Below are positions 47,029 to 62,926 of a DNA stretch of 64,000 nucleotides, one piece after another. The notes under the pieces were generated by a model, which was given only the letters and a program-made list of their open reading frames with translations, made no database searches and was not told the origin of the DNA. This DNA is from Myxococcota bacterium. GTDB taxonomy: Bacteria; Myxococcota_A; UBA9160; JAFDDA01. Each line of letters starts with the position of its first letter. Positions within the stretch are counted from its first letter, which is position 1. The DNA lies in assembly GCA_965228475.1 (NCBI GenBank), contig OZ245817.1:2880001-2944000 (forward strand), written 5' to 3'. Made by a program: the position numbers and the translations under genes.

Positions 47029-47781
47029 ATTCCCGTCGCCACCCCGGAAAAGGCCCGTCGTGGCACCGGAATCCGCTCCATTGCCCGGGCCGCCGACGTG
47101 CTCCGCTCCCTCAAGGGCAGCGAGGGTCTCAGCCTCGGAGAGATCGCCGGACGGGTCGGTCTGCCGCGCTCGACGGTCCAGCGCCTCGTCGACGCCCTGA
47201 TCGCGGAGGGGCTGGTCGTGGCCTCCGCCGCCGAGGGCGGCCTGCGGCTGGGCCCGGAGATCCAGGCGCTCGCGGCGGCCGACCGGTCCGCCGTGCTCGA
47301 CGTGGTCCGCCCCTTCCTCGAGACGCTGTCCGCGAAGACGGGCGAGACCGTCGATCTCTCCGCCTTCCACGCAGATCACATGCTCTTCGTCGACCAGGTC
47401 GTGGGCACGCACCGGCTGCGCGCCGTCTCCGCCGTCGGCGAGCGCTTCCCGATGACGACGACGGCCAACGGCAAGGCCGCCCTCGCCCTGCTCGACGACG
47501 GGACCCTCGACGCCATCGCGACCCGCCAGCTCGCCGGGCGCAGGAAGGCGCTCCCCTCGTTTCGCGCGGAGATCGATCGCATCCGAAGCAGCGGCTACGC
47601 GCTCGATCTCGACGAACACAGCGAGGGGATCTCGGCCGTCGGTGCGGCCTTCCGCGCACCGACCGGGATGCTCTACGCGATCTCCATTCCGGTTCCCTCG
47701 GAGCGATTCGCTCGGAGCCGGGAAGGACTCGTCGAAGCGCTGCTGGGCACGATGGCTTCGCTTCGGGCAACGCTCGGCTGA
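47029..47781 (+). CDS. IclR family regulator (probable ATT start at 47029)
   Basis: GIRSIARAADVL, GLPRSTVQRLV, TGETVDL, TANGKA, GYALD.DEH..GISAV. GAGGAG RBS 8 nt before an in-frame ATT. Confidence 0.88.
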   Translation: MPVATPEKARRGTGIRSIARAADVLRSLKGSEGLSLGEIAGRVGLPRSTVQRLVDALIAEGLVVASAAEGGLRLGPEIQALAAADRSAVLDVVRPFLETLSAKTGETVDLSAFHADHMLFVDQVVGTHRLRAVSAVGERFPMTTTANGKAALALLDDGTLDAIATRQLAGRRKALPSFRAEIDRIRSSGYALDLDEHSEGISAVGAAFRAPTGMLYAISIPVPSERFARSREGLVEALLGTMASLRATLG

Positions 47782-47818
47782 GCTTCGCGGCCCCGCCCAC
47801 GCGCCAGCATCGGGAGCC

Positions 47819-48706
47819 TCAGCGCGGCGTCGCCATGATCGCGTCGATCAGCGTGATCAGCCGATGGATCGCGGGCCCGAGCGTCCAGACGAGGATTCCC
47901 GGCAGGAAGCCCGAGACCAGGGGAAACACGAGCTTCTCGGGCAGGGCTTCGGCGCGTGCGAGGGCGCGCTCGCGGGCCCGGCGCGCCAGGTCGTCCGCGA
48001 TGTTCCGCACGATCTCGACCAGACCGGCCCCGGCCTCCTCCGCCTGGATCCACGCCGAGACGAAGCTCCGGATCGCGTCGACTTCCGTCCGGGTGGCCTG
48101 CCGCCGCATCGCCGTCGAGCGGTTTTCGCCCGCGCGGATCTCGTTCTGGACCCGCGCGAACTCCCGAACGAGGGGCCGGTCCGGCGTGGCCGAGACGTAG
48201 CGTTCGAGCGCGGCTTCGAACCCCATCCCCGACTCGGCCAGCGTCGCCAGCGTCTCGAGGGCGGGCGGCAGGTCCCGCTCGAGGGAAGCCACGCGCTCGC
48301 GACGGGCGGCCCTCACGCGAAGCGCCGGCACCGAAGCGATGCCCAACGCGACGAGGACCGGCGCGAAGGCGACGAAGTAGGACAGCGCCGTCCCGAAGAC
48401 GGGGATCGTCCGGGCCTGCCACTGGAGCCCGGTCGCCATCGCACTCGCTCCCCAGGCCCAGGCGATCGCCACGCCCAGGAACAGGGCGATGCCCTGCCGA
48501 ACCGAGAAACGGCGGACGGCGTCCTCGCCCTCGTAGCCGGCCAGGGCGAGCCAGTGCGCGAGGCGCGAGCTCCGGGGCGTCGAGACATCCTTCTCCCAGA
48601 GCCGGGCTTCCGCCCCGCGGCTCCGCTCGGTCCACCACGCGAGGCCCGCGGCGCCGACGATCAGCAGCAGCCCGAACAGCAGGGTGAGGAAGTCCAGGGC
48701 CGACAT
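47819..48706 (-). CDS. tadC: Tad inner-membrane platform protein TadC (T2SS F family)
   Basis: LP.ALE.LA...ESGMGFEAAL, E.RAG..R..A, EKLVFPLV..FLP. Confidence 0.82.
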   Translation of the reverse strand: MSALDFLTLLFGLLLIVGAAGLAWWTERSRGAEARLWEKDVSTPRSSRLAHWLALAGYEGEDAVRRFSVRQGIALFLGVAIAWAWGASAMATGLQWQARTIPVFGTALSYFVAFAPVLVALGIASVPALRVRAARRERVASLERDLPPALETLATLAESGMGFEAALERYVSATPDRPLVREFARVQNEIRAGENRSTAMRRQATRTEVDAIRSFVSAWIQAEEAGAGLVEIVRNIADDLARRARERALARAEALPEKLVFPLVSGFLPGILVWTLGPAIHRLITLIDAIMATPR

Positions 48707-49557
48707 CAGACGGTGATCCTGGAGATGCGCCACATCCAGAGGAGTGAGAGCGCCTGCACGAGCAGGGTTCCGCCGACGAGCCCCTCCCCGACCCCGCTCG
48801 CCAGGAACGAAGCGATGCCGGGCGGATCGTTCAGCCAGACGACCACGGCGATCGCCAGGTTCGCGGCCATGAGCACGAGGACGGAGCCTCGGGTCGGCGC
48901 CGCCTGGGATTCGATGCGCCGCAGGACGTCGGCCCGGTCGCGTACCGAGCGCGAGACCACCGCGAGGCTCCGCGAGAGCTGGCCGCCGGCGTGCCACTGG
49001 ATCGCGAGGCAGAGCGCGAGCAAGCGGAACGATTCGAGGGGGACTTCCTGTGTCAGGCGAGCCGTGGCCTCGGAGGGGTTCTCTCCGGTGGCCAGGCGAC
49101 CCGTCATGTCGGAGAGCAGGCGGCGCAAGGGTTCGCGCGCGTCGCGTGCCGCTCGCTGGAACGCATCGAGCGGGCTGGCACCGGACCGGAGGGCCGAGGT
49201 GACGAGGTCGAGCGCGTCGGCCAGACCCTCTTCGAGTGCGAGCGCGGCCCGGTCGACGCGCGCGCGGTGGGCGATGAACGCGAGCGCCCCCACCACGGCG
49301 CCCAACCCCAGACCGACCACCACCTGAGCCAGGGCGACGACGGCGATGGCCCCGGCGCCGGCCCCGACGAGCAACCCGACCTGGATGCTGCGCTGACCGG
49401 CGAGCGAGCCGGCGACGGGTTCGGGCGAATCGGCGTCGTCGGGACGGCTGTGCAGCCGCTGCGCCGCCCGGGAGCGCTGCTGCCAGGCGCGGGCAGCCGC
49501 TCCCGAGACCGCCAGAACCCCCGCGAAGGTGAGTGCTGCGAGCCCTGCACTACTCAT
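48706..49557 (-). CDS. tadB: Tad inner-membrane platform protein TadB (T2SS F family)
   Basis: LADALDLVTSALRSG.S, GGQL..SL......VRDR; directly upstream of tadC. Confidence 0.82.
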   Translation of the reverse strand: MSSAGLAALTFAGVLAVSGAAARAWQQRSRAAQRLHSRPDDADSPEPVAGSLAGQRSIQVGLLVGAGAGAIAVVALAQVVVGLGLGAVVGALAFIAHRARVDRAALALEEGLADALDLVTSALRSGASPLDAFQRAARDAREPLRRLLSDMTGRLATGENPSEATARLTQEVPLESFRLLALCLAIQWHAGGQLSRSLAVVSRSVRDRADVLRRIESQAAPTRGSVLVLMAANLAIAVVVWLNDPPGIASFLASGVGEGLVGGTLLVQALSLLWMWRISRITV

Positions 49558-49583
49558 CCGACCCACCTCCGCCCGAACGCAAG

Positions 49584-49615
49584 AGGCGCGGCCCCTCTTC
49601 CGAGGAGCCGCGCCT
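49584..49615 (-). terminator. Strong stem-loop between the PEP-CTERM gene and tadB (terminator, attenuator or stabiliser)
   Basis: 14 bp arms with one mismatch (AGGCGCGGCCCCTC / GAGGAGCCGCGCCT) and a 4 nt loop; no clean U-tract. Confidence 0.45.
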
Positions 49616-49668
49616 GATGAAGGGCGACTGCCCGCCGCGACGGTTCGACCGGCACGGCAGGCCCCTGG

Positions 49669-50451
49669 CTAGTCGCGCTTGCGGCCGAGCGCCGCGAGGC
49701 CCGCGAAGCCGGAGAGCAGCAGCAGCAGGCTGCCCGGCTCGGGCACGAGGTTGCTCTCGACCCAGCCCTCGGCGAGTTCGAGCGCCTCTTCGAGGTCCTC
49801 TTCGTTCGCCGGCGTGAGGGTGGCGAAGAGGATGAAGAGCGAGTTCGACGGGTCGACGAAGCCGTCCGCCTGGAACACGGCCTCGACCAGGTAGATGCCC
49901 TCGGTCGCGAAGTCGGGCGTGACCGTGGCATCGCCGAGCAGCGTGAAGTCGTGGTGCTCGTGGAGCAGACCGTTGGCCGCCGTCGTGCCGAGTTCGATCC
50001 CGGTCACGGCCGCCGAGCCGTCCAGCACGGACGTGCCGCCGAAGTGCGCGATCTCGAGGACCTCGCCGTCCGGAGTCGCGCCGAAGTCCACCGCGCCGAC
50101 GCCATCCCAGTACGAAAGGCTCCGGCCCTCGTAGCCCAGGATGATGTCGAGCTCGACGTCGGTGCTGCCGGGGATGTTGTCCGCGCCGAGCGGCAGCTGC
50201 AGGGGAGCCACCGTGTCGCTGAACGAGTTCCAGCCGGGCTCGTCGCCCGAGAAGGAGCCGTCGAGCTCCGGGTCGAAGAGCTCCCCTTCGAAGATGTTCG
50301 CATCGACGAACAAGAGATCGTCGAAGTCCATGCCTCCGACGACGAGCTCGCCGCCCTGCTGGTAGACGTTCGCATCGACGTGCTGGGCCTGTGCCGATTC
50401 CGTCCCAAGGAACAACAGCGAGGCCGCCAGAGCCAAATTCAAGATCCGCAT
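49669..50451 (-). CDS. PEP-CTERM surface protein with His-motif putative metal-binding domain
   Basis: Signal peptide ending AQA then QHVD; internal LSYWDG.GAV, HEHH, GIYLV; canonical VPEPGSLLLLLSGFAGLAALGRKR tail. Confidence 0.85.
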   Translation of the reverse strand: MRILNLALAASLLFLGTESAQAQHVDANVYQQGGELVVGGMDFDDLLFVDANIFEGELFDPELDGSFSGDEPGWNSFSDTVAPLQLPLGADNIPGSTDVELDIILGYEGRSLSYWDGVGAVDFGATPDGEVLEIAHFGGTSVLDGSAAVTGIELGTTAANGLLHEHHDFTLLGDATVTPDFATEGIYLVEAVFQADGFVDPSNSLFILFATLTPANEEDLEEALELAEGWVESNLVPEPGSLLLLLSGFAGLAALGRKRD

Positions 50452-50525
50452 GATCGTGTTTTCTCCTTTTCGGTTCGGGGCCGGCCGATGGACGTACCGC
50501 CACGATGCCCCTTCCCGAAAACTCC

Positions 50526-50551
50526 AGTGCCGCTCGGGCGCCGACGGTTCC
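50526..50551 (-). promoter_or_regulatory. Candidate ECF sigma promoter, copy 1
   Basis: GGAACC-N14-GGCACT on the minus strand upstream of the PEP-CTERM gene. Confidence 0.6.
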
Positions 50552-50563
50552 ATGGCACGCCGA

Positions 50564-51682
50564 TCAGGCGAGCAGCCGGCGCCTCCTGGCGGCGGCAAGC
50601 AGCGGCAGGAGGACCGCGATCTCCGTTCCGAGGCCGCAGCCCGAGCTCGCCTCGACGTCTCCGTCGGCGCTCGCGCACTGCGGGTCGTTCGGGAAGTCGA
50701 TCAGGCCGTCGTTGTCGTTGTCGATCCCGTCGGCGCACTGGAAGGCCTCGGAGGGATCGTTGAGTCCCTTGCAGCCCGGGTCGTCGGGGTGGTCCGCGAG
50801 GCCGTCGCCGTCGTTGTCGATCCCGTCGTCGCAGGCGAGCGCGAGGGAGTACTCGGATTCGTCCGAGGCGCCGTCGCAGCCCGGGTCGTCGAAGCCCAGG
50901 CCCAGGTTCCCACCGTCATGGTCGGCGCGGCCGTCGCCATCGTTGTCGTAGCCGTCCTGGCAATCCGGCACGTCGAGGTTGGCCTCGACCCACGCGACGG
51001 CGGTGTCCAGGGTCGACTGGAACTCGTTGTACGCGAAGACCATCCAGAAGCGCGGGGAAGGCGCGACTGCGTCCGCGGCGAGCACCGGGTCGATGGACGC
51101 CTCGAGGGCAACGAGGTAGATGCCGCTCGCTGCGCCGCCGGTCGGCCGCAGGTGGTAGTCGATGTGGCGGTGGATGCCTCCGGTGGAGGGCTCCGTCGCG
51201 ATCAGGAAACCGGAGACCGGTGCCGTTCCTCCGTCCGCGATGGCCAGGTTGGCGCCACGGGAAATCTCGACGGTCTCACTCCCTGGGACCGGCCCCCAGC
51301 TGACGGCGCCGTCGCCGTCCCAGTAGGAGAGGTTCCGCCCCGTCAGGGGCTCCACCACGATGTCGAAGTAGAGATCAGCGTCGTCCGGCAGGCCGACCAT
51401 CCCCGGCGGGGAGTCGTTCGAAGTGTGGCCCGGCGCGTCCGTCCACAGCCCGCCCTGGCCCGAGTTGAAGTTGAACGTGTCCGAGAAGACGCGGACGTCG
51501 GGAACGAGCTGCAAGAGGTCGAAATCGGTGGCGCCCGTCTTCACGTGGCCGTCATCGATCCCGTAGAGCATGTCGAGGTGCTGGGCGTTCGAGGGCCCTG
51601 CCGTGAAAGCGAACCCCGCCAGGATTGCGGCCCCAAGCTGGACCTTCGCGATCCGCAACCGATTCGACGCCCGGTTCGACAC
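50564..51682 (-). CDS. Surface protein paralogous to the PEP-CTERM protein, with three Cys/Asp repeats and a CGLG-TM-Arg tail
   Basis: GGAGGGAGG RBS before GTG 51682; signal ending SNA then QHLD; LSYWDGDGAV, HRH, GIYLV; tail SSGCGLGTEIAVLLPLLAAARRRR. Confidence 0.82.
   Translation of the reverse strand: MSNRASNRLRIAKVQLGAAILAGFAFTAGPSNAQHLDMLYGIDDGHVKTGATDFDLLQLVPDVRVFSDTFNFNSGQGGLWTDAPGHTSNDSPPGMVGLPDDADLYFDIVVEPLTGRNLSYWDGDGAVSWGPVPGSETVEISRGANLAIADGGTAPVSGFLIATEPSTGGIHRHIDYHLRPTGGAASGIYLVALEASIDPVLAADAVAPSPRFWMVFAYNEFQSTLDTAVAWVEANLDVPDCQDGYDNDGDGRADHDGGNLGLGFDDPGCDGASDESEYSLALACDDGIDNDGDGLADHPDDPGCKGLNDPSEAFQCADGIDNDNDGLIDFPNDPQCASADGDVEASSGCGLGTEIAVLLPLLAAARRRRLLA
50675..50962 (-). repeat. 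Three intragenic CxDGxDNDxDGxxD...DPxC repeats
   Basis: CQDGYDNDGDGRAD..DPGC, CDDGIDNDGDGLAD..DPGC, CADGIDNDNDGLID..DPQC; Asp spacing resembles Ca-binding loops. Confidence 0.85.
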
Positions 51683-51704
51683 CCAGTACCTCCCTCCGCG
51701 CTCG

Positions 51705-51722
51705 TGTGCGCACTTGTGCACA
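51705..51722. promoter_or_regulatory. Palindromic/tandem element in the divergent control region
   Basis: TGTGCGCA-ct-TGTGCACA, both an imperfect inverted repeat and a 10 bp-period direct repeat. Confidence 0.35.
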
Positions 51723-51739
51723 GGTCCGTGCGGTGAGGT

Positions 51740-51765
51740 AGTGCCGGCCGGCCCCGAAGGGTTCC
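51740..51765 (-). promoter_or_regulatory. Candidate ECF sigma promoter, copy 2
   Basis: GGAACC-N14-GGCACT on the minus strand upstream of the CGLG-anchored gene; both hexamers and the spacing are identical to copy 1. Confidence 0.6.
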
Positions 51766-51839
51766 CGTCGATCCCCGCTTTTCTCGTCAGAACGAGGCCC
51801 CCTAGACCGATCGGAACGCATCGAGTAGGGTCGGCGCTC

Positions 51840-52163
51840 ATGGGCCTCCGTCGAACCAGCACGTGGATCCTGATCGCGAGCTTCATTGCGTCCGTGCATC
51901 TGATGCCGGGCGTTCACGAGCTCTCGCACGACGGACATCCCGCGCACGCGGAAGCGAGTGACAACGCGGAGACCTCTGCCGCCGAGGCGGAGTGCGATTT
52001 CTGCGCGCTCTTGTCCGGTGCCCGGCTCGGACTCACGGGAGCCTCGAGCCACGCGGATCGCACCGTCCCTGCTCCGACCCGCCTCGAGGCTCTTCCGGAA
52101 AGCCCGCACTTCGCTGCGCGCTTCGATTCGCCCGCCTCGCCGAGAGCCCCGCCCGCCGCCTAG
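51840..52163 (+). CDS. DUF2946-like leader peptide (signal segment, His patch, CxxC, C-terminal RAPP)
   Basis: 107 aa: hydrophobic N-terminus, HELSHDGHPAH, CDFC, ...PRAPPAA-stop. Confidence 0.82.
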   Translation: MGLRRTSTWILIASFIASVHLMPGVHELSHDGHPAHAEASDNAETSAAEAECDFCALLSGARLGLTGASSHADRTVPAPTRLEALPESPHFAARFDSPASPRAPPAA

Positions 52164-52178
52164 TACCTGGGCTGTGGC

Positions 52179-52198
52179 AGGGACGCACCTGCGTCCCT
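52179..52198 (+). promoter_or_regulatory. Perfect inverted repeat between the RAPP ORF and the ECF gene
   Basis: AGGGACGCA-cc-TGCGTCCCT, beginning 15 nt after the RAPP ORF stop. Confidence 0.55.
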
Positions 52199-52231
52199 TG
52201 GTTCCGACTTCGAACCTGCGGGCGAACCGCC

Positions 52232-52837
52232 ATGAAAACATCGACCTGTCGAGACGGGGGCGCACTCCGCTCCCATTCAGGTTCCGTGCACCGCCGAGAG
52301 GCCGACCGCCTCGAGTCCGTGCGCGATCATCTCAGTGAACTCCGTTCCGTCGCCACGCGCGTGCTGGGCTGTCGGGACGCGGCCGAGGATGCCGTTCAGG
52401 AGGCCCTCGTCACGCTGTGGGGCCTGCGCGATTCGCCGCCGAACCAGCGCGCGTGGCTCGTCCGGACCGTCCTGCATCGGAGCCTTCACGCGCGCCGCAC
52501 CGCGATGCGCAGGCGGAAGTGGGAGACGCGCGCGGGCGAGGAGCTGACCCGTTGGTGCGCCCTCTGCGCCCCCGGCGACGAGCTCGAGCGGCGGGAGCTG
52601 AGGCGCACGCTCGACCGCGCCCTCGAGGGCCTCTCGGAGGAGCACCGCACGGTGCTCGCGCTGCGCGAGATCGAAGACCTCGACTACGAGGAGATCTCCC
52701 GCGCGCTGGAGGTCCCGGTCGGAACGGTGCGATCCCGGCTGAACCGGGCCCGGGCCGCCTTCCGGTCGCAGCTGCAGAGCCAGGCGTCGGCCCTGGGGCA
52801 CGAGGCGCCGCAACCCGCCCGCCAGGGGATGCGATGA
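52232..52837 (+). CDS. ECF sigma factor (start uncertain) with CxxC in the sigma2-sigma4 linker
   Basis: AAEDAVQEAL..LW, RAWL; R.VL.LRE.EDLDYEEIS.AL.VP.GTVRSRLNRAR; linker WCALCAP. Confidence 0.9.
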   Translation: MKTSTCRDGGALRSHSGSVHRREADRLESVRDHLSELRSVATRVLGCRDAAEDAVQEALVTLWGLRDSPPNQRAWLVRTVLHRSLHARRTAMRRRKWETRAGEELTRWCALCAPGDELERRELRRTLDRALEGLSEEHRTVLALREIEDLDYEEISRALEVPVGTVRSRLNRARAAFRSQLQSQASALGHEAPQPARQGMR

Positions 52838-54777
52838 GCTGCGCCGCACGCATGGCGGCGCTGATCCTGGCGCTCGGGCTGGTTCCCGGTGTCGCCGCCG
52901 CGGCCAAGGGCGACCGCTCGGTCCGCATCGGCACCCATGCTCGCGTGCTTCTCGAGCAGGCGGTGACGCGCGTCTCCGTGGCGGACCCGTCGATCGTCGA
53001 CGTCCAGATCCTGAACGCGCGGGAGCTCCTGGTGCTGGGGCGCCGCGTCGGCCAGACCAACGTGATCCTCTGGCTCGACGACGGCTCCGTCGACGACCGG
53101 CTCTGGACGGTCCACCGCGACCTCTCCTTGCTGAACTCCGTGCTGCGCGACATCCACCGCGGCGTGCGCGCCGAGAGCGCCGCCGATCGCGACGCGATCG
53201 TGCTGCGCGGCCGCGTGCCGAACGTCCGCTTCTCGCGCGCCGCCGAGGAGGCCGCGCTGCGCTTCTTCTCGGGCGGCGCCACGCAGACCGAGGGCGGGCT
53301 CGTCGTCCAGGTGCCCGGTGGCGGAGCGCCGGAGCCCTCGGGTGGGGCCTCGGCCCAGGAAGGCGAAGGGGCGGCCGAGCCGGCCGTCCGCGCGGCGACG
53401 AGCCGCCGAACCACCGGCCAGACCGTGCGCGTTCTCAACCTGATCCGCGTTCAGGAGCTCCCCGAGACCCTCGAGGAACGGATCCTCTCGGCCACCCGCC
53501 CGATCGGAGGCGAAGAGGTGCGGGTGCGCCGGATCGCCCGGGGCGACGCACCCGACGACCGTGCGGACAGCTTCATCCTGGAAGGACACGTCCAGAACCA
53601 GGTCACCCTCGTCCGCGTCCTGACCGTCGCCGCGCAGGTGCTCGGCGGCGGGGCCGGCACGACGGACATCCGCACGATTGCCGACGAGGCCGGTTCCCTG
53701 CGACAGGGCGGCGGCGGGGGCGGCAGCGGCGGAAACGTCGCCGCCGTGGTCTCGACCGCGGGCAGCCGCTCGGGAGGCGCCGGGGGGTCGAGCAGCGTGC
53801 GAACCAATCCGGCCCGGGCGCCCGCGCTGACCGCGGCCGGCGGCCGGATCCTCTCGTTCCTGGAAGTGCGCGACCTCCCGCAGGTCCGGATCGAGGCGCG
53901 CCTCTACGAGGTCAGCCGGGCGCGGCTCCGGGACTGGGATCCGAGTGCGAACCTGCTGCTCGGCGATTTCTCGCAGGGCGCGCTCCTGCCCTCTCCTCTC
54001 GCCGCCCTCTCCCAGGGCGCCGGAGCCGCGAGCGTGGGCACCGGGAGCTCGACCGTCCAGAACGTGCTCTCCCTGATCGGCGGCGGCCTCGCAAACAGCT
54101 TCCAGGTCCAGAGCGGCATCGTCGCACTCGACCTGCTCTTCTCCCTCCTCGAAGAGGAAGGGATCGCGCGCAGCCTCGCCACGCCGTCGCTCACGGTGCT
54201 CTCGGGCGAAACGGCGAACCTGAACGTCGGAGGCCAGATCCCGATCGCCACGACGATCGAGACCCAGACGAGCGCCGCCAGCGGCACGCTCTTCAGCTCC
54301 ACGGTCTTCGCCGACTTCGGCGTCAACCTGAGCGTGGTGCCCCGGGTGGGCGAGAACGACTTCGTGACCCTCGACGTCACGCCGAGCATCTCGGCGCCGG
54401 ACCTCACGTTGACCTCGAACATCTCGAACGCCACGGGCGCGACCCAGACGACGACCGCCTTCGAGACGCGCAGCCTCAGCACGAGCGCGCGCCTCCTCGA
54501 CGGCCACGCCCTGGTCCTCGCGGGGCTGCTCCAGCAGAACGCCTCCGAGGACGCGCGTTTCACCCCGGGGCTCCACCGCGTTCCGGGCCTCGGCTGGCTG
54601 GCACGCAGCCAGGGGCGCCAGCGGGACGACCTCGAACTGGTGATCGTGATCAGCCCGAACATCGTGCGCGACCCGGCCCCGCGGGTTGCGCTCTGGGAGT
54701 TCGCCTCGACGGCGGAGCTCTTGCGAGACGACCTACCGGCGATCCCGGCCCCGCGGCCGGCGCCGGTGATTCCCTGA
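52834..54777 (+). CDS. cpaC: Tad secretin RcpA/CpaC
   Basis: Signal peptide; VSVADPSIVDV..ELLVLG..VGQTNVILW; QV.IEAR.YEV, LA.PSL.VLSGETA...VGG.IP, FGV.L.V.P, VPGLGWL, ELVI.I.P.IV. Confidence 0.88.
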   Translation: MSCAARMAALILALGLVPGVAAAAKGDRSVRIGTHARVLLEQAVTRVSVADPSIVDVQILNARELLVLGRRVGQTNVILWLDDGSVDDRLWTVHRDLSLLNSVLRDIHRGVRAESAADRDAIVLRGRVPNVRFSRAAEEAALRFFSGGATQTEGGLVVQVPGGGAPEPSGGASAQEGEGAAEPAVRAATSRRTTGQTVRVLNLIRVQELPETLEERILSATRPIGGEEVRVRRIARGDAPDDRADSFILEGHVQNQVTLVRVLTVAAQVLGGGAGTTDIRTIADEAGSLRQGGGGGGSGGNVAAVVSTAGSRSGGAGGSSSVRTNPARAPALTAAGGRILSFLEVRDLPQVRIEARLYEVSRARLRDWDPSANLLLGDFSQGALLPSPLAALSQGAGAASVGTGSSTVQNVLSLIGGGLANSFQVQSGIVALDLLFSLLEEEGIARSLATPSLTVLSGETANLNVGGQIPIATTIETQTSAASGTLFSSTVFADFGVNLSVVPRVGENDFVTLDVTPSISAPDLTLTSNISNATGATQTTTAFETRSLSTSARLLDGHALVLAGLLQQNASEDARFTPGLHRVPGLGWLARSQGRQRDDLELVIVISPNIVRDPAPRVALWEFASTAELLRDDLPAIPAPRPAPVIP

Positions 54778-54792
54778 CGAGAAGTGAAGACC

Positions 54793-54812
54793 GCCCGGTG
54801 AGCGCACCGGGC
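54793..54812 (+). other. Perfect hairpin in the 5' UTR of the pilin gene
   Basis: GCCCGGTG-agcg-CACCGGGC just before a strong AAGGAGG RBS. Confidence 0.5.
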
Positions 54813-54829
54813 ACCAAGGAGGAAGAAGG

Positions 54830-55246
54830 ATGCGATTGAAGAAGCGCGGACTGCGGGACGAGCGAGGTGCCGCCCTGGCCGAGTACGGACTGCTGCTCGC
54901 CGGCGTCGCGATGGTCTGCATGCTGGCCGTCTCGGTGCTCGGCACGAAGGTCGGCGGCCTGATCGGCTCGGTGGCGACGATGATCCCGGGAACCACCATC
55001 GACCTCGATGCCCCGGTGCTCGTGGGCACGCTGCTCGAGACCCAGGCCACGGACATCAACGGCGACCAGATCAAGGAGATCAACATGCCGCTCGACTCCG
55101 TGGTCGACCGCAACTCGGCCACCGTGCGCGAAGAGGGCCTCTCGCCTCGCCTCGGCCAGGGCATGGGACTCGACCCGCACGCCACCTCCCACGCGGTCCA
55201 GGTGGGATCGGGCCAGAACCCCTTCCACGCCGGCGGCGGGAACTAG
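54830..55246 (+). CDS. flp: Flp/type IV (Tad) pilin with long C-terminal extension
   Basis: Leader ending RDERG then AALAEYGLL (Glu5/Tyr6 Flp motif), hydrophobic helix; 138 aa; strong RBS. Confidence 0.8.
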   Translation: MRLKKRGLRDERGAALAEYGLLLAGVAMVCMLAVSVLGTKVGGLIGSVATMIPGTTIDLDAPVLVGTLLETQATDINGDQIKEINMPLDSVVDRNSATVREEGLSPRLGQGMGLDPHATSHAVQVGSGQNPFHAGGGN

Positions 55247-55265
55247 CGGAGCCGAGAGCGGGAAC

Positions 55266-56228
55266 GTGGATCGGCGTCGACGCAGAGAAGGCGGGGGCGT
55301 GCTGCTCGAGTTCGCCCTCGTGATGGGCGTGCTCTGGATGCTGGTGGCCGGGACCATCGAGCTCGGTCGCATGGTCGCGGCCGGCCACCTCATCCAGGGC
55401 GCCGCCCGTTCCGTGGCGCGAAGCATGGCGCTCGAGCCAACGGGTGCGAACACGTCCTTCGCGATGGCGATCCAGAACTTCTTCGACCCCGACTACCTCG
55501 TGATCGACATGGCCGCGTGCAGGGCCTTGGACATCACACCCGAGCAGCTCGCTCGCGGTGACGAGGCCGAGGAGTTCGACGGACTCCCGCTCCTGAACCG
55601 CCTGCTCTTTCCGCTGATGATTCGGGAAGACCGGGACGTCGATGGCGAAGAACGCAGCTTCCTGCGCTATCCGGGGACGCTCGTTCGACACCTCTCCGCG
55701 CCGCCGGCCAAGCCCTGCGCCACCGCCTACACGGTGGCCGTCCCCGAGCTCCGCTCGGAAGGCGGCTCGACGCGGGTGTGTTGGCACCGGGTGGTCGAAG
55801 AGCTCGTGAGTGGCGGGACGGACGGGACTCGTTTCGCGCTGTCCTGTGCGGGCGAACCCTGCGGGATGGCCGGCGTCCAGGTTCGCTTCCCGTTCCAATC
55901 GGCCGCATTCCCCGCATGGCGGGAGACCGGAGAGATCCTCCCCGACGGCCGGCCGCAACAGCGCGTCGCCGCCTGGAACGAAGGCGCGCCCGGCGAGCCC
56001 ATCTCCGCCAGCGGAGGCAGCGAAGGCTGTTCGGATCTCTCCGGGAAGTTCGACAACACCGCGCGCGTCGGGATCCTCGGCATCGAGGACGGCCGCGTCG
56101 ACGCCTACGGCGGCCCGCTCGGCCTGGGCGCCCTCCGCGTCCTCCCCGAGATCGCCTCGGGGCCGAGCCGCGCCTATCGCAAGGTGCTCGCCGGGAGCGC
56201 CCTCTACCCCCGCGAAGGATTCCTCTGA
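55266..56228 (+). CDS. TadE-family pseudopilin with large Cys-containing domain
   Basis: RRRREGG then GVLLEFALV...IELGR...AAR..AR TadE motif. Confidence 0.78.
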   Translation: MDRRRRREGGGVLLEFALVMGVLWMLVAGTIELGRMVAAGHLIQGAARSVARSMALEPTGANTSFAMAIQNFFDPDYLVIDMAACRALDITPEQLARGDEAEEFDGLPLLNRLLFPLMIREDRDVDGEERSFLRYPGTLVRHLSAPPAKPCATAYTVAVPELRSEGGSTRVCWHRVVEELVSGGTDGTRFALSCAGEPCGMAGVQVRFPFQSAAFPAWRETGEILPDGRPQQRVAAWNEGAPGEPISASGGSEGCSDLSGKFDNTARVGILGIEDGRVDAYGGPLGLGALRVLPEIASGPSRAYRKVLAGSALYPREGFL

Positions 56229-57094
56229 TGCGACGACGATCGAGCACGTTTTCCGACTGGCCCTTCCGGCTCGGCCTCGTGGCGTTTGCCGCGCTCGGCG
56301 CCGCCCTCGTGTACGTCGTGGCCGAGCGTTCGAACGACGACTCCGATCGGCTGGCCGGCCCGCCGCCGGGGACCACCGCCGTCCCGGTCCTCGCCCGCCC
56401 GCTTCCCGCGTTCACCGCGATCGAGCTCGAGCATCTGATCGATCCGGCCACGGGCGGGTTCGCCGCGATCTACCTCCCGACGGATTCCCTCTTCGACTCC
56501 ACGCTCACGGAGCCCCAGGCCCTGCTCGGCCGCGTGCTGGCCAACGACAAGCGGGCCGGCCTCGTGTTCTCGGAGAACGACTTCATGCCTCGCGGCACGC
56601 GGCCCGGCCTGGTCGCCGGCATCCCGGCCGGGAAGCGCGCCGTTCGCCTCGAGGCGAGTCGCGTCTCGGGCCTGGTCGGTCTCCGCCGGGGCGATCGGCT
56701 CGATCTCATGGTGAGCGGCCGGAGCCGGAACGCCGCGGCGCGCCCGGGCCAGCTCCTCGGCCGCCGCAGCCGCGCCGTGGTCCAGAACGGCATGATCGTC
56801 GAGCCCGCGCGGGCGCGCCGGTCGGCGGCCGACGGCAAGATCATCGAGGAGGTCGTGATCGCGATCGATCCTTCGGAGGTCGCCGGCCTGACGGCCGCGC
56901 TCGACGACGGACTGCGCATCGACACCCTGCCCCGCTCCGGCCAGGGAGGCGCCACCCAGGAAGAGGACGCCTACGGCGGCCGCGCCCACGAGGAGATTGC
57001 CGAGATCGACCTCATCCGCGGAACGCGCCGCACCGTCGAGACCACCACCGGCGGGCCGCGCCCTCCGGCCGTCGCCAGCGGCCCTCCTCTCTGA
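56228..57094 (+). CDS. cpaB: CpaB/RcpC-like pilus assembly protein
   Basis: N-terminal TM, SAF-like VPVLARPLPAF, IPAGKRAV.L, GLRRGDRLDL. Confidence 0.78.
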   Translation: MRRRSSTFSDWPFRLGLVAFAALGAALVYVVAERSNDDSDRLAGPPPGTTAVPVLARPLPAFTAIELEHLIDPATGGFAAIYLPTDSLFDSTLTEPQALLGRVLANDKRAGLVFSENDFMPRGTRPGLVAGIPAGKRAVRLEASRVSGLVGLRRGDRLDLMVSGRSRNAAARPGQLLGRRSRAVVQNGMIVEPARARRSAADGKIIEEVVIAIDPSEVAGLTAALDDGLRIDTLPRSGQGGATQEEDAYGGRAHEEIAEIDLIRGTRRTVETTTGGPRPPAVASGPPL

Positions 57095-57097
57095 CCC

Positions 57098-58189
57098 ATG
57101 CTGGCCTGGTTCTCGCTCCTCCTGTTCGCCCTGATGGGCGTCTCGGCCCTCGCGCTCGACCTGGGCGTGGCGCGCCTGGCCCAGACGCGCCTCGAGACCG
57201 CGGCCGAGTTCGCGGCCCTCGGGCGCACCCACGGCATGACGGAGGCGGAGCTGCGCGCACTCGCCGGCGAGGTGCTGGCGGAAGGGGTCACGCCCGCGAG
57301 CCGGGTTCGCCTCGGCCCGATCGGCCCCCTCGACCCGGCCGACGCGGGCTGCCCGGGCAACCTGCCGGCGGAGGCCGGAACCCCCGCGGTCCTCGCGCGG
57401 CGCATCCCCCTGCTCTTCGGCCACGGCAGCATGGTGGCCTTCGCCTCCCCGACCGGCCTCACCGACATCCTCGCGATTCGGAACGATCCCACCATCGAAG
57501 ATCCGGCCGACCGCAACCCGACACCGGTCCTCCCCGATGCATCGCTTCCACCGGACGTCCTCGCCCTGCGCGAACAGGGCCTGTGCGTCGACGGTCGCGG
57601 CCAGGCGGAGCTCGTCCCGGCCCTCGCCGTCGCGGGCGTCACCCAGCGCACGCTGCCCGGCGGGCTGCGAGGGCTGGCGGTTGCCATCAACAGCGACCTG
57701 TGGCTCAGCCGAGAGGCCACCCTCGAGACGGAGTGCACCGCGGACCGCCAAGCAGGCCCGTGGTTCGAGGTCCAGGCAATTCCGGGCGGATGCGACTCGG
57801 GAGTCGAAGCATGTTCGATCCCCGTCGGAGACGAAGCCTTCCACATCGGGGCGACGGTGGAAGGCGATCCCCGCAACCTCGCAGCGGCCCCGGAACCGCT
57901 GGAACCCGACCTGCATCAGCGGGTCATCGCACCGCTCAGCCGCGGCGGGGTGACCGAGGGCTTCGTCGCGCTCTGTGCGCGTCTCAAGGACGCCCGGATC
58001 TACGTCTCACCTCGCTGGAACGACGCTCCGACCCGGTTCACCTCCTACACGGCCGAGGTCCGGCGCGATCCGATGGTTCTGAGCCGGCTGACCACCGATC
58101 CCACCGATCTCGAACCGCACCCGCTCGACGGCAACCTCCGCCCTCTCGTCCAATCCGCGCGCCTGACACTCCCGGAGGCCGGCTCGTGA
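57098..58189 (+). CDS. TadG-like protein
   Basis: ALALDLG......RLETAAEFAAL, matching the Tad domain pattern D.G....LQ.AAD.AAL. Confidence 0.68.
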   Translation: MLAWFSLLLFALMGVSALALDLGVARLAQTRLETAAEFAALGRTHGMTEAELRALAGEVLAEGVTPASRVRLGPIGPLDPADAGCPGNLPAEAGTPAVLARRIPLLFGHGSMVAFASPTGLTDILAIRNDPTIEDPADRNPTPVLPDASLPPDVLALREQGLCVDGRGQAELVPALAVAGVTQRTLPGGLRGLAVAINSDLWLSREATLETECTADRQAGPWFEVQAIPGGCDSGVEACSIPVGDEAFHIGATVEGDPRNLAAAPEPLEPDLHQRVIAPLSRGGVTEGFVALCARLKDARIYVSPRWNDAPTRFTSYTAEVRRDPMVLSRLTTDPTDLEPHPLDGNLRPLVQSARLTLPEAGS

Positions 58190-59367
58190 GTTCGGGGCGC
58201 ATCGAGATCCTCGTCGTCGGCACCGACGCCTCGCTGCTCGACGAGCTCGACCAGGCCGCGACCGGCACCGAGGAGGTCCAGCCCTCGATCCGCTTCGCCG
58301 AAGGCCCGCGCGACGCTCTCGCGACGGCGCGACGGCGGCGCGTGGACCTCGTCTGCATCGAACTCGGGAGCGATCCCAAGCCGGTGCGCGAACTCGCCGC
58401 AGAACTCCGCGCCATCGACCCGGGCGTGGCGCTCCTCGGGCTCCACGCGGGCGGCGAGGAGCACGCCGAGAGCCCGGTTCTCATCGAGGCGGTGCGCTCG
58501 CGTTTCGTCGACGTGCTGCGGCGCCCGATCTCCGGAACGGAGCTTCGCCCGATCCTGCGTGACCTCGGCGAGACGACGACCGAGCGACGCCGGGCCGAGG
58601 GCACCCTCGTGGCCTTCCACAGCACGAAGGGTGGCGTCGGCAAGTCGACCCTCGCGATCAACACCGCCTGCGCCCTCGCCGAGAGCCGGCCCGGCCGGGT
58701 GCTGCTCGTCGATGCCTCGCTCCAGCTCGGGGTCTGCGCGGCCGCACTCGATCTCGCCCCGGAGACGAGCCTCGCCGACGCCGCCCGCGAATGCGAACGG
58801 CTCGACGCCGGCCTGCTGCGCGGCCTGACCGCGCGGCACGAAAGCGGGCTCCACCTCCTGGCCGCGCCGCGGGATGCCGTCGAGGCCGCCGAGGTCGACG
58901 AAGCGGCACTCTCGCGCGTCCTCGGTACGGCCCGCCAGTGCTTCGACGTCGTGATCGTGGACACGCTGCCCATGGTCGACGAGCTGATGATCGCGATCCT
59001 CGATCAGGCCGAACGGATCTTCCTGGTGAACCAGGCCACGGTGCCCGACGTGATCGGCGCGAGCCGCCTGCTCGACGTCCTGCGCCGCCTCGAGATCGAC
59101 CCGGAACGCTGGCGCATCGTGGTGAACCGCACGATGCCGCGCTTCCCGGGCGCCCTCGGCACCCGCGAGATCGAAGCCCGCCTCGACATGCCCGTCGGCT
59201 ACGAGGTGCCCTTCGACCGCCGCGTGCTGAGCGCCCTCAACCTCGGCGAACCCTACGTCCTGCGCGCGAGCCAGCGCCGCGGCTGGGGCCGCGCGGTGGC
59301 GGGAATCGTCGCGGACGTCGAGCGCGCCCTCGAGATGGTGCGCTCCGAGCGGGGCGCGGACCGATGA
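58186..59367 (+). CDS. cpaE: CpaE/TadZ (receiver-like domain plus MinD/ParA ATPase)
   Basis: KGGVGKST deviant Walker A, VLLVD..LQ.G, SGLHLLAAP, FDVVIVD, A.N.G.P. Confidence 0.88.
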   Translation: MSSGRIEILVVGTDASLLDELDQAATGTEEVQPSIRFAEGPRDALATARRRRVDLVCIELGSDPKPVRELAAELRAIDPGVALLGLHAGGEEHAESPVLIEAVRSRFVDVLRRPISGTELRPILRDLGETTTERRRAEGTLVAFHSTKGGVGKSTLAINTACALAESRPGRVLLVDASLQLGVCAAALDLAPETSLADAARECERLDAGLLRGLTARHESGLHLLAAPRDAVEAAEVDEAALSRVLGTARQCFDVVIVDTLPMVDELMIAILDQAERIFLVNQATVPDVIGASRLLDVLRRLEIDPERWRIVVNRTMPRFPGALGTREIEARLDMPVGYEVPFDRRVLSALNLGEPYVLRASQRRGWGRAVAGIVADVERALEMVRSERGADR

Positions 59368-59383
59368 GCAGACGGAGGATGCC

Positions 59384-60778
59384 GTGACGGGCGACCCGCG
59401 AGAAGAGAGCGCGCGCAGCCGCCTCACCCGCGCGCGCCGGGACGTCGTCTCGACGCGCGTCTCGAGCGCCGCGGCCCGCCGCCGGGCCGCTCCGGAGCCC
59501 CCCGCCGCCAACGCGGCCGCGAGCCTGCGGGCCTCCCTGCACGCGCGCCTCCTCGACGAGCTCGCGGAACGCAACCTCCTCCACGCCGACGACGAGGCCA
59601 TCCGGACCGCGGCGCGCGAGCTGATCGAGCGCGCGCGGGCCGAGGGCGACCTCCCGGTGAATCACGAAGAGGAGCGGGATCTCGTCCGAAGCCTCACGGA
59701 AGAAGCCATCGGGCTCGGACCGCTCGCGCCCTTCGTCTCCGACCCCGCCGTCACGGACATCCTCGTGAACGGGCCGCACAAGGTCTGGGTCGAGCGCTTC
59801 GGCCGGCTCGAGCCCGTCCACGCGCCGTTCCAGGACGAGGCGCACCTCCTCCGGATCATCGAGCGGATCGCGGGCCGCGTCGGGCGGCGGATCGACGCCG
59901 CCTCCCCGATGGTGGATCTCCGCCTCCCCGATGGAAGCCGCGTCCACGCGACGCTTCCGCCGGTGACCCCCGACGGCCCGACGCTCTCGATCCGCCGCTT
60001 CGGCGCGCGGCGCCTCGAGGCCGCCGATCTCGTCAAGACGGGGAGCTTCTCGCCGACGATGTCCGACGCCCTCGAGGCCTTCGTGCTCGGCCGGCGCAAC
60101 ATCCTCATCTCGGGCGGCACCGGGGCGGGCAAGTCGACCCTGCTCGGCGTCCTCGCCGCGCACATCCCGGCCTCGGAGCGGGTCATCACCATCGAGGACA
60201 CGCTCGAGCTCCAGCTCGACCACCCGCACTGGGTGCGCATGGAGTCGCGCCCGGCCAACGTCGAAGGCCGCGGCGAGCTCACCGCGCGCGACCTCGTCCG
60301 CAACAGCCTGCGGATGCGTCCGGACCGCGTGATCGTCGGCGAGGTTCGCGGCGCCGAAGCGCTCGACATGCTCCAGGCCATGAACACGGGCCACGAGGGA
60401 AGTCTCGGGACGATCCACGCCAACTCGCCGCGCGACGCGCTCGCGCGGCTCGAAACGATGGTGCTGATGGCCGGGATGGACCTGCCCTCGCGCGCGATCC
60501 GCGAGCAGATGGTCTCCGCGATCGACCTGATCGTCCACGTGAGCCGGGACGAGGACGGCGTCCGCCGGGTCGGGTCGATCTGCGAGGTCGTGGGGCTCGA
60601 GGGCACCGTCCCTCAGCTTCAGGACCTCTTCGTCTTCCGGCGCAGCGGCCACCGCGAAGGCCGCGTCCTCGGGCGACACACCGCCAGCGGAATCGTTCCC
60701 CGTTTCGGGGACGAGATCCGCCGCCGCGGCATCGCACTTCCGAACGAATGGTTCCAACCCTCCGAGGTTTCCTCATGA
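59384..60778 (+). CDS. cpaF: CpaF/TadA pilus assembly ATPase
   Basis: GLGPL, DILVNG, PMVD.RLPDGSRV, SGGTGAGKST, TIEDTLEL, LRMRPDR.IVGEVRG.EA, MNTGHEGS.GTIHANS. Confidence 0.95.
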   Translation: MTGDPREESARSRLTRARRDVVSTRVSSAAARRRAAPEPPAANAAASLRASLHARLLDELAERNLLHADDEAIRTAARELIERARAEGDLPVNHEEERDLVRSLTEEAIGLGPLAPFVSDPAVTDILVNGPHKVWVERFGRLEPVHAPFQDEAHLLRIIERIAGRVGRRIDAASPMVDLRLPDGSRVHATLPPVTPDGPTLSIRRFGARRLEAADLVKTGSFSPTMSDALEAFVLGRRNILISGGTGAGKSTLLGVLAAHIPASERVITIEDTLELQLDHPHWVRMESRPANVEGRGELTARDLVRNSLRMRPDRVIVGEVRGAEALDMLQAMNTGHEGSLGTIHANSPRDALARLETMVLMAGMDLPSRAIREQMVSAIDLIVHVSRDEDGVRRVGSICEVVGLEGTVPQLQDLFVFRRSGHREGRVLGRHTASGIVPRFGDEIRRRGIALPNEWFQPSEVSS

Positions 60779-61491
60779 GCTTCTCCACGCCGCGCCGACT
60801 GCTCGCGCTCGCCCTGCCCCTCGGCCTGCTCGTCGCGGGCGGCTGCGCCCGGACGCCGGGCCCGCCTTCGGACCCCAACGTGCGTCTCTCCCAAATCATG
60901 GAGGCCTGGCACGACCAGCGCGCCGCCGGCGTGACGTGCCAGGACGGCTACGAGCCCGGGCGCCCGGTGGTCGACTGCCGGCGGCTGATGAAGGCCCTCG
61001 AGGGGCTCGCCCTCGAGTTCCCGCGCCACCCCGGCGTCCTGTTCGCGGCGGCCACGCTGGCGCGCGAGGAAGGCGCGCCCGAGAAAGCGCAGGGCTACCT
61101 CGCCGCCCTGTTCACGGTGCGCCCCACGCACCCCGCCGCCGCGATCCTGCGCGCACGGATTGCAATGGACCAGGGCAATCTCCCCCAGGCCGAGCGCACC
61201 CTGAGCCACCAGATCCTGCTGGCACCGGACCACGCGGGCCTGCGGGAGGCGTTCGCCTCCGTCGCGTACCTGAAGGGCGACTGGAAGGCATCGGAAGAGC
61301 GCCTGCGGGCGGCCGAGCAGCTCGGCGCTCCGGATTGGCGCGTGGCCTACCACCGCGGCCTCATCGCCGAGGCGCGGGGCCAGCTCGACGAAGCGGCCGC
61401 GCACTACCGGCGCTCGCTCGACGCCTCGCCGGGGTTCGAGCGCGCGCAGATGCGGCTCGCGGGGCTCGCCGTCCGGCCGCGCGTGGACTAG
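60775..61491 (+). CDS. TPR lipoprotein, TadD/pilotin-like
   Basis: Lipobox AGGC, several TPR-like helical repeats, last gene of the Tad arm, ATGA overlap. Confidence 0.72.
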   Translation: MSFSTPRRLLALALPLGLLVAGGCARTPGPPSDPNVRLSQIMEAWHDQRAAGVTCQDGYEPGRPVVDCRRLMKALEGLALEFPRHPGVLFAAATLAREEGAPEKAQGYLAALFTVRPTHPAAAILRARIAMDQGNLPQAERTLSHQILLAPDHAGLREAFASVAYLKGDWKASEERLRAAEQLGAPDWRVAYHRGLIAEARGQLDEAAAHYRRSLDASPGFERAQMRLAGLAVRPRVD

Positions 61492-61578
61492 TCGCGCCAG
61501 CGCAGGCGGGCCACACGGAATCGCGCTCCCCCCGGACGTCCGGTCCGGTACCCTCCGGCGAATTCACGGGAGGGATCC

Positions 61579-61884
61579 ATGAAGCGCTTCTCGCTCCTCA
61601 TCACGGCCGTCGCCGCACTGGCCCTCGGCTGCGCGACCGGCGGCGGCCACGCCGACGACCACGAGCACCACCACGGCAACGACGGCCACGCCAACGCCCA
61701 CGAGCACCATCACGGCGACGACGGCCACGCCAGCGAACACGAACACCACCACGGCAACGACGGGCATTCGAGCGAGCACCAGCACCACCACGGCGACGAC
61801 GGCCACGCCAACGAGCACGAACACCACCACCACGGCGACGCCTCCGAGCGCGAAGACTCCGATCACCACCACCACGCCGAGTAG
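61579..61884 (+). CDS. His-rich repeat lipoprotein (30 His in 84 mature residues)
   Basis: GGGAGG RBS, MKR plus hydrophobic core plus lipobox ALGC, then five 13-aa His repeats. Confidence 0.85.
   Translation: MKRFSLLITAVAALALGCATGGGHADDHEHHHGNDGHANAHEHHHGDDGHASEHEHHHGNDGHSSEHQHHHGDDGHANEHEHHHHGDASEREDSDHHHHAE
61645..61839 (+). repeat. Five imperfect 39 bp tandem repeats encoding GHxxxHEHHHG(N/D)D
   Basis: Units start at 61645, 61684, 61723, 61762 and 61801. Confidence 0.9.
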
Positions 61885-61977
61885 GGGCCGCCTGCCATGG
61901 CCCGTTCCGGCCCCGCCCATGTTCGTGGCGGGGTCTGGTAGCCTTCTGGGTGCCGCAACCGAAAAGGAGCCGCCGCC

Positions 61978-62865: not shown

Positions 62866-62926
62866 CCCTCCGACGGCAGCTATGCTCCCCTGCCCGCCGC
62901 ACGCCGGCGGAGCAGGAGGAGCGGAC

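Follow-up and report, generated by a model that had tools for sequence, protein, structure and literature searches.

A candidate metal-responsive regulon in Myxococcota, in which a CruR-type leader peptide and an ECF sigma factor may control a Tad pilus and two surface proteins

In Proteobacteria, arrest leaders of the CruR/CutF type are known as regulators of individual transporters or enzymes, while the known roles of Tad pili are adhesion, DNA uptake and predation. Here we describe a locus in which the two lie side by side: a stretch of 64,000 nucleotides from a Myxococcota bacterium (assembly GCA_965228475.1, contig OZ245817.1, positions 2,880,001 to 2,944,000; the window) carries at 47819-61884 a leader of the DUF2946/CruR type, the gene of an extracytoplasmic function (ECF) sigma factor, a Tad/Flp pilus system and the genes of two paralogous surface proteins, protA and protB. 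The DUF2946/CruR family is defined by an export signal together with CXXC and RAPP motifs that lie 45 residues apart, within one or two (PMC9426467), and CutF has been noted to share this spacing (PMC9973294). Copper ends the arrest of CruR (Bp2923 of Bordetella pertussis) and thereby allows Rho termination, so that it acts as a repressor (PMC9426467). CutF of Rhodobacter capsulatus answers in the opposite sense, since copper prolongs the stall, a stem-loop is opened and copper thereby induces (PMC9973294; bioRxiv 10.1101/2025.02.05.636593).

We consider it fairly probable that the locus forms one self-contained regulon, in which a leader sensing copper or another metal in the periplasm would govern the ECF sigma factor, and the sigma factor in turn the Tad pilus and the two surface proteins. 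A preliminary description of this DNA had proposed a metal-responsive Tad system; what now speaks for it, all of it from comparison, is a conserved neighbourhood, a leader of the CruR type, the CxxC of the sigma factor, a shared promoter motif and further sites of this motif at metal-related genes. Genes were called by third-position G+C, chosen because the window has about 70% G+C, together with frame analysis, and the called genes were then scanned with Pfam and NCBIfam. All genes that had been named for the two divergent arms are present (Table 1). The right arm, on the forward strand, reads leader, ECF sigma, secretin, Flp-like pilin, TadE-like protein, CpaB, TadG-like protein, CpaE, CpaF, TPR lipoprotein and His-rich lipoprotein; the left arm, on the reverse strand, reads protA, protB, tadB and tadC.

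Of the 193 genomes of this order, 26 from six families contain an orthologous secretin (45-75% identity over the full length); none was found in the one other genome from the genus of the window (89% complete). The surroundings were compared in 23 of these 26 secretin-positive genomes, the three left out being on short contigs (below, G numbers denote genomes and L numbers the loci fetched from them). The core secretin-flp-tadE-cpaB-(tadG)-cpaE-cpaF-TPR is collinear in every locus as far as the contig reaches, and protA and protB adjoin it in 16 of the 23 genomes. In G263 and G483 the pair lies on a separate contig, and in G407, G409, G411 and G466 a profile search of the whole genome found no protA/protB domain; the Tad subtype of these last four keeps leader, ECF sigma and promoter without the pair. 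Homologous Tad loci thus keep the arrangement, and this synteny across six families rules out an accidental neighbourhood, the outcome that the preliminary description had named as fatal to its proposal. A search for related loci that started from a closer alignment of eight sequences returned one locus.

Judged by its sequence, the leader of the window is a true CruR/DUF2946-type CxxC...RAPP peptide, as first described. It starts with a hydrophobic segment that would serve in export; a His cluster, CxxC, a spacer of 46 residues, RAPP and two further residues follow before the stop codon. Seven of its residues are histidines. The same ruler is present in 25 of the 25 leaders collected, in which a His cluster precedes CxxC and the latter is followed by 45-48 intervening residues, R(A/S)PP, a tail of 1-5 residues and the stop; the C-terminal motif is RAPP in 24 leaders and RSPP in one (G407). 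The leaders are only 18-39% identical to the window copy, and the invariant columns in an alignment of 24 of them are H30, C52, C55, R102, P104 and P105. H30 stands just past the membrane segment, and a second His is nearly invariant. The hydrophobic segment ahead of CxxC was placed by a strict window rule in 19 of the 25 leaders (the placement in L065 being false) and by eye in the others; L074 and the ECF-type leader of L065 lack their N-termini, so that no such segment is visible in them. RAPP near the end of an open reading frame is common by chance in the genome (117 frames of at least 50 codons), and the window leader is the only one of these 117 that has the CxxC ruler in a real-looking protein, as well as the only DUF2946 match genome-wide.

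The leader is found in more than one setting. In four genomes there are two leaders at split loci, one 5' of ECF-tadB-tadC and the other directly 5' of the secretin, and the leader therefore behaves as a movable cis cassette. Besides the full set of 26 secretin-positive genomes, the leader profile matches 30 more in the order; five of these 30 secretin-negative genomes were examined, and in four of the five the leader lies 5' of a Plug-domain TonB-dependent receptor. Near the Tad locus, G471, G507 and G466 have extra leaders, which stand first in a permease operon (ArsP_1-SPFH) or ahead of a His-rich periplasmic protein. In G471 (L164:578-2345), directly beside tadB, such a CxxC-RAPP leader heads the gene of a small His-rich periplasmic protein, after which come genes for a DUF3299 protein and an ABC ATPase; in G466 (L166:3-332) a CxxC-RAPP leader likewise heads a small protein of this kind, and the contig ends there.

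Like CruR, the window leader is the first gene of its operon and is separated from the next gene by a long spacer, and leaders of the same kind in sister genomes head TonB-dependent receptors, as CruR itself does (PMC9426467). It differs from CruR in having an ECF sigma factor or a Tad secretin downstream, in its Myxococcota host and in the His cluster that follows the membrane segment. The words sigma factor, secretin, pilus, Tad and Myxococc are absent from the main text and three supplement files of PMC9426467. With CutF the leader would share the use of a nascent exported peptide to sense periplasmic copper and to act on the next gene through stalling and mRNA structure, whereas CutF has CxxxC, a PPP stall site and a multicopper oxidase as target (PMC9973294; bioRxiv 10.1101/2025.02.05.636593), instead of the CxxC and RAPP found here. 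In addition, no stem-loop clearly masking a Shine-Dalgarno sequence was found at the locus. A stem-loop masking the ECF start was considered and dropped, since no consistent signal was obtained across 24 leaders, despite the strong hairpin that follows the window leader (z = -4.07 on folding the 85 nt nearest the stop).

The ECF protein contains the sigma2 and sigma4 regions only. The CxxC in the linker between them, which had been noticed in the window copy, proved invariant (20 of 20 orthologues) and is preceded by a conserved H-x3-H. The closest described parallel is CorE/CorE2 of Myxococcus xanthus (ECF44), from the same phylum, which also works without an anti-sigma factor and has an essential Cys motif between sigma2 and sigma4.2 (PMC4937300). 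ECF44 factors have CxC and a C-terminal Cys-rich domain, whereas the present orthologues have CxxC at the same place and no such domain: the C-terminus is without Cys in 16 of the 20 and has a single Cys in L059, L066, L070 and L071. Because the domain is missing from all 20, the sigma factor of the locus is not of the ECF44/CorE type. No anti-sigma gene adjoins the ECF gene, and in the window the ATG of the secretin overlaps the ECF stop codon, which leaves no room for one. Five secretin-negative genomes contain no ortholog of the locus sigma, the best match having 43% identity and 75 bits.

A spaced-dyad search of upstream regions yielded a motif with the consensus gGGAACTC-N8-CG-NN-CGGCAC, which in the form GGAAC-N14-CGGCAC has 31 exact sites in 24 loci, all of them intergenic, against about 0.5 expected (a composition-based estimate scaled to about 330 kb). 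Seventeen sites belong to the protB/protA arm, seven to flp (with four more at one mismatch), two to the leader-ECF unit (in G456 and G411) and two to tadB; the other three have no assigned target. Downstream of each of the two window sites, 5' of protA and of protB, come a Shine-Dalgarno sequence and then a start codon, and the unlinked protA/protB pair of G263 has retained its motif. The two paralogous proteins of the left arm thus accompany the system and have a promoter motif in common with the pilin, in agreement with their inclusion in the original proposal. Throughout the order, GGAACYC-N12-CGGCAC has 117 matches in the 26 secretin-positive genomes (18 for a reversed-pattern control) and 198 in the 167 others (control 99), counts that were tallied by hand and whose total of 315 agrees with the search output. 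The motif is therefore 3.8-fold commoner per genome where the locus sigma is present, and from this association we infer that the sigma factor would read it. Further sites precede metal-related genes, namely CobW_C, MerC, a COG0523 operon and ArsP_1 with DUF1826, the last as a divergent pair in G263.

Several of these further sites have surroundings of their own. At genome positions 2951092-2951176 of G000 (L080:7092-7176), some 7 kb beyond the end of the window, two exact motifs in divergent orientation separate the genes of a DUF6796 membrane protein and a CobW_C protein; a second ECF sigma gene (L080:5515-6213) stands beside this pair, with an FAD oxidoreductase alongside. A syntenic motif pair in G471 lies between MerC and CobW_C. 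In G263 (L028, C9:81000-100900) a cluster of motifs is found 5' of three more PEP-CTERM proteins and of an operon with a full-length COG0523 (CobW) GTPase, in surroundings that include a DksA/TraR-like zinc-finger gene, another ECF sigma and a DUF6796 protein. Finally, a near-identical site, GGAACTC-GGGCGAGTC-GGGCGGCAC, recurs in secretin-negative genomes (e.g. G449, G218 and G445); it probably belongs, as a conserved element, to some other gene and inflates the background count of the motif.

The Tad core is complete, with the TadA/CpaF ATPase, the TadB/TadC platform and a secretin of 647 residues (PF00437, PF00482 twice, and PF00263 with PF13629). The pilin shows a G/xxxxEY-type site and a hydrophobic helix. 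Its orthologues have 119-144 residues in 21 of 21 cases and a conserved C-terminal extension, in which a His-containing motif is common to all but those of G407, G411 and G466 (the pilin of G409 is cut by the contig end); that this motif varies together with protA/protB is a lead only, because the related genomes are not independent. In the TadG-like protein only the N-terminus is conserved in most loci. The TPR lipoprotein, collinear after cpaF in other loci, had been listed in the preliminary description and is indeed present; its position is that of the TadD-type pilotin, whose role is described in PMC10499894, so that it is to be counted as a structural part of the machine. No prepilin peptidase gene (TadV/CpaA) lies in the locus, and one PF01478 gene is found unlinked at genome position 1269984.

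The locus thus resembles the canonical Tad/Flp systems (Cpa, Rcp-Tad) in its secretin, CpaB, CpaE, CpaF, TadB, TadC, TadE/TadG-like minor pilins, TPR lipoprotein and putative Flp-type pilin, and differs from them in the longer pilin with its C-terminal extension, in the separate arm for tadBC, in the missing prepilin peptidase, in having its own leader and sigma factor and, usually, in two PEP-CTERM proteins. The Kil prey-killing apparatus of M. xanthus is likewise Tad-derived, belongs to the Myxococcota and is split over more than one transcription unit; as described, it has FHA domains, an FHA-fused ATPase and a short secretin, and neither TadG nor TadD (PMC8460266). A killing apparatus of the Kil type was rejected for the present locus, in which no FHA match was found, TadG-like and TadD-like genes are present and the secretin has 647 residues. 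Nothing supports two further suggestions of the preliminary description, that metal enters through the secretin and that the His-motif proteins are exported by the Tad machine. What the locus specifies is a whole apparatus for making a pilus, from pilin and minor pilins to platform, ATPase and pilotin, and the subtype of four genomes has leader, ECF sigma and promoter without protA/protB. The claim of a 30-His lipoprotein at the end of the right arm holds for the window, with exactly 30 His in 101 residues, and not for the system: among the 22 further genomes compared, only G098 has a homologue near the locus. Beside the Tad locus of G407 (L066:12209-12550, forward strand) and G455 (L069:17149-17493, reverse strand) lies a distinct His/Cys-rich protein, about 115 residues in length; it has repeats of the DGHLHH type, no Pfam match and, by eye, no signal peptide.

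The products of protA and protB, the only two copies of their family in the 5.0-Mb genome, are 32% identical over 229 residues (BLASTP). Translation of protB would start at the ATG at 50451, which has the Shine-Dalgarno sequence AAGGAGA ahead of it, and that of protA at the GTG at 51682, behind GGAGGGAGG. They had been presented as a pair of His-motif PEP-CTERM proteins, and for protB this holds, its tail being recognised by TIGR02595. The protA of the window ends instead in a Cys-containing hydrophobic stretch and four Arg, without a PEP motif and recognised by no model; most protA orthologues end, by eye, in a PEP-type tail, and the window protein may have a swapped sorting signal. The C-terminal third of protA carries three acidic double-disulfide Cys repeats of the DNDGDG type (NF033662 40.4 bits, cut-off 41). 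Two exosortases are encoded in the genome. An AlphaFold2 (AF2) model of protB, confident at a predicted local distance difference test (pLDDT) score of 85, has a beta-sandwich, then a helix and last the sorting tail. Among 28 aligned family members H166 is invariant, D26 and D42 are present in 27, H24 in 25, and position 164 is His or Asp (by eye); in addition, several protB orthologues begin with an acidic, His-rich stretch. An N-terminal histidine brace or amino-terminal copper- and nickel-binding (ATCUN) motif was considered for both proteins and dropped, the conserved His lying, by eye, at a variable distance of one to several residues past the likely cleavage site.

The family is large: a profile search of 1.84 billion proteins yields 1645 representatives at E <= 0.001, and of 37 sampled relatives none reaches any NCBIfam cut-off. 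PepA (NF033554) is similar in being exported, about 260 residues long and provided with a PEP-CTERM tail, the weak similarity covering part to nearly all of the length. Since no score (25.7 bits for protB, at most 31 bits for the 13 of 37 sampled relatives that match weakly) comes anywhere near the 80-bit cut-off, any kinship of protB with PepA must be distant. The fold was not retained as a clue to function: the best Foldseek matches of protB were lectin domains of the FimH type, at template modelling (TM) scores of 0.3-0.5 and root-mean-square deviations of 6-10 Å, and a wide VIA-align search gave a best Z of 6.7, all of which is within the common range for beta-sandwiches. The top match in the ESM Atlas, a 'Metallo-mystery pair system four-Cys motif protein', scored 0.80, which is below the level reached by shuffled proteins, and is a lead only.

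From these parts we infer the arrest, the metal, the assignment of the motif to the sigma factor, the sign of the response and the role of the output, in a mechanism that would run as follows. The leader would be exported while it is translated, and when the ribosome stands at RAPP, the CxxC and the His cluster would sit about 47-50 residues back, outside the membrane. Metal occupancy of this cluster would set how long the arrest lasts, and the arrest would tune the expression of what follows, the ECF sigma factor or, in the split loci, the secretin operon directly. The sigma factor, with no anti-sigma partner, would then fire the GGAAC-N14-CGGCAC promoters of the pilin, protA/protB, tadBC and sometimes of its own leader. 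The output would be a Tad pilus made of an unusually long pilin, together with two exosortase-sorted surface proteins of predicted beta-sandwich fold that bear a conserved His/Asp cluster.

Copper would be the likeliest metal to be sensed, since the leader family offers the precedent. The sign of the response cannot be read from the sequence, because the two studied members of the family answer copper oppositely. We lean slightly towards a system that is switched on at low metal, as with CruR, because homologous leaders head TonB receptors and the putative regulon contains chaperone-like and permease genes. A number of other observations, with this ambiguity of sign, weigh against the regulon proposed here. 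CobW-type genes are more usually linked to zinc than to copper. The Pfam DUF2946 model (PF11162) scores above its cut-off in only 2 of the 25 leaders, matching 18 of 25 at E <= 1, and matches none of the six secretin-type leaders. RNA structure past the leader stop is uneven, with a mean z of -1.06 and 7 of 24 leaders below -1.5. The window has no motif 5' of flp or of the leader (flp is probably co-transcribed with the secretin). In secretin-negative genomes the motif is still about 2-fold more frequent than the control, and the sigma factor and the motif are paired by association, second ECF genes lying near motif sites in G000 (beside CobW_C) and G263 (with the PEP-CTERM proteins). Lastly, none of the public sequencing runs for the stretch 49600-55300 is RNA.

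The last but one of these points leads to a different account of the control, in which another ECF factor, for example the one beside the CobW_C cluster, reads the motif, and the locus sigma acts on different genes and is not the route by which the leader would govern the pilin or protA/protB. GGAAC is a common -35 element of ECF promoters, and some secretin-negative genomes have 4-6 motif matches. The ECF proteins that neighbour the sites in G000 and G263 are, however, unalike by eye, the motif is enriched where the locus sigma occurs, it stands 5' of the leader-ECF unit in the two genomes named above, as an autoregulated ECF gene would show, and it stays with protA/protB when the pair leaves the locus. 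We therefore regard this account as unlikely. To much the same low degree we can credit a leader that senses not metal but the thiol-redox state of the envelope or the load on Sec and export, where a disulfide at CxxC, or the pull of the translocon, would release the arrest and the Tad regulon would be a response to oxidative or secretion stress. Other arrest peptides with RAPP/RAGP monitor secretion, SecM being named in PMC9426467; the model for CutF itself uses disulfide formation as the releasing force; and the CxxC of the sigma factor could also be redox-active. Metal binding fits better than redox with the invariant His right after the membrane segment and its nearly invariant companion, and the redox or export account has to face the TonB receptors, ArsP permeases and His-rich periplasmic proteins that homologous leaders head, as well as the metal-handling genes behind other promoter-motif sites.

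As to what the regulon is for, ordinary adhesion or aggregation is a substantial contender, though we would put its chances somewhat under even: metal would then be only a cue for a biofilm or floc built of Tad pili and PEP-CTERM proteins, without any metal handling. Tad pili are described as adhesion organelles, the genome has its two exosortases, the sub-threshold matches of protB and its relatives are to a flocculation protein (PepA; PMC9850573), and the best fold matches of protB are fimbrial adhesin or pilin domains, though only at the Z given above. Such a reading leaves unexplained the conserved His/Asp cluster, the acidic His-rich N-termini of several protB orthologues, the presence of His-rich neighbours in four of the genomes and the association of other motif sites with metal-handling genes. 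We think it improbable, in turn, that the Tad machine, the long His-bearing pilin and the His/Asp surface protein pair are a capture system for copper or another metal that has taken the place held in sister genomes by TonB-dependent receptors behind a CruR-type leader. Such a system would come on at low metal, along with CobW-type chaperones and permeases, and bound metal, or particles that carry metal, would reach the cell by way of a retractile pilus or of the surface proteins.

A search of the literature, with bioRxiv supplements and subscription journals outside its reach, found no copper- or leader-controlled Tad system and no DUF2946 leader tied to a sigma factor or pilus. If the leader does feed the sigma factor, a co-translational metal signal crossing the membrane would be turned into a transcriptional programme that builds a whole surface organelle; this would be a new regulatory wiring and a new input for Tad pili. 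The comparison provides handles in the 25-nt promoter motif, the 45-48 residue ruler of the leader and the invariant CxxC of the sigma factor. It also draws attention to a large uncharacterised PEP-CTERM family whose two members here carry the conserved His/Asp cluster.

Table 1. Features of the Tad locus and of its flanks, in positions of the window
Feature	Position	Strand	Basis and remarks
IclR-type regulator (flank)	47098-47781	+	
tadC, T2SSF platform protein	47819..48706	-	PF00482 74.1 bits; orthologues adjoin tadB in other loci
tadB, T2SSF platform protein	48706..49566	-	PF00482 51.6 bits
protB, exported, predicted beta-sandwich and PEP-CTERM tail	49669..50451	-	TIGR02595 19.0 bits (cut-off 16)
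ECF-type promoter motif GGAAC-N14-CGGCAC 5' of protB	50527..50551	-	exact match in the protA-protB gap; same position matched in G471
protA, paralogue of protB	50564..51682	-	BLASTP against protB, E 6e-19
ECF-type promoter motif GGAAC-N14-CGGCAC 5' of protA	51741..51765	-	exact, intergenic, sense to protA
CruR/DUF2946-type leader peptide	51840..52163	+	PF11162 26.2 bits (cut-off 23.7)
GC-rich hairpin, 8 bp	52179..52198	+	in the 68-nt spacer from leader stop to ECF start; putative role
ECF sigma factor with CxxC in linker	52232..52837	+	PF04542, PF08281; TIGR02937 76.7 bits (cut-off 42.9)
Tad secretin (CpaC/RcpA type)	52834..54777	+	PF00263 129.8 bits; PF13629 53.9 bits
Long pilin, putatively of Flp type, 138 aa	54830..55246	+	PF04964 23 bits, below the 32.2 cut-off
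TadE-like minor pilin, 320 aa	55266..56228	+	PF07811 37 bits
CpaB/RcpC	56228..57094	+	TIGR03177 64.5 bits (cut-off 71); PF16976 21.2 bits
TadG-like protein, N-terminal pseudopilin segment only	57098..58189	+	PF13400 18.6 bits, below cut-off
CpaE/TadZ ParA-type ATPase	58186..59367	+	PF13614 55.6 bits
CpaF/TadA ATPase	59384..60778	+	PF00437 203 bits; TIGR03819 367.6 bits
TPR lipoprotein at TadD pilotin position	60775..61491	+	TPR families
His-rich lipoprotein, 101 aa	61579..61884	+	30 His; five HxHHHG-type repeats; accessory, not conserved
TauD-family dioxygenase (flank)	61978-62865	+	
MenB-like enoyl-CoA hydratase (flank)	62882-63838	+	

The flanking IclR, TauD and MenB-like proteins gave no tblastn match in the fetched loci of other genomes, and the flanks thus do not travel with the locus. 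Rfam has no match at E <= 1 in 47500-62200, and a scan of 50400-52400 for promoters and terminators detected no sigma-70-like site and a sole terminator, at chance level. The public runs that hold the stretch 49600-55300 include two marine-metagenome runs from one sample, which contain 0.47 and 0.34 of the sampled words.

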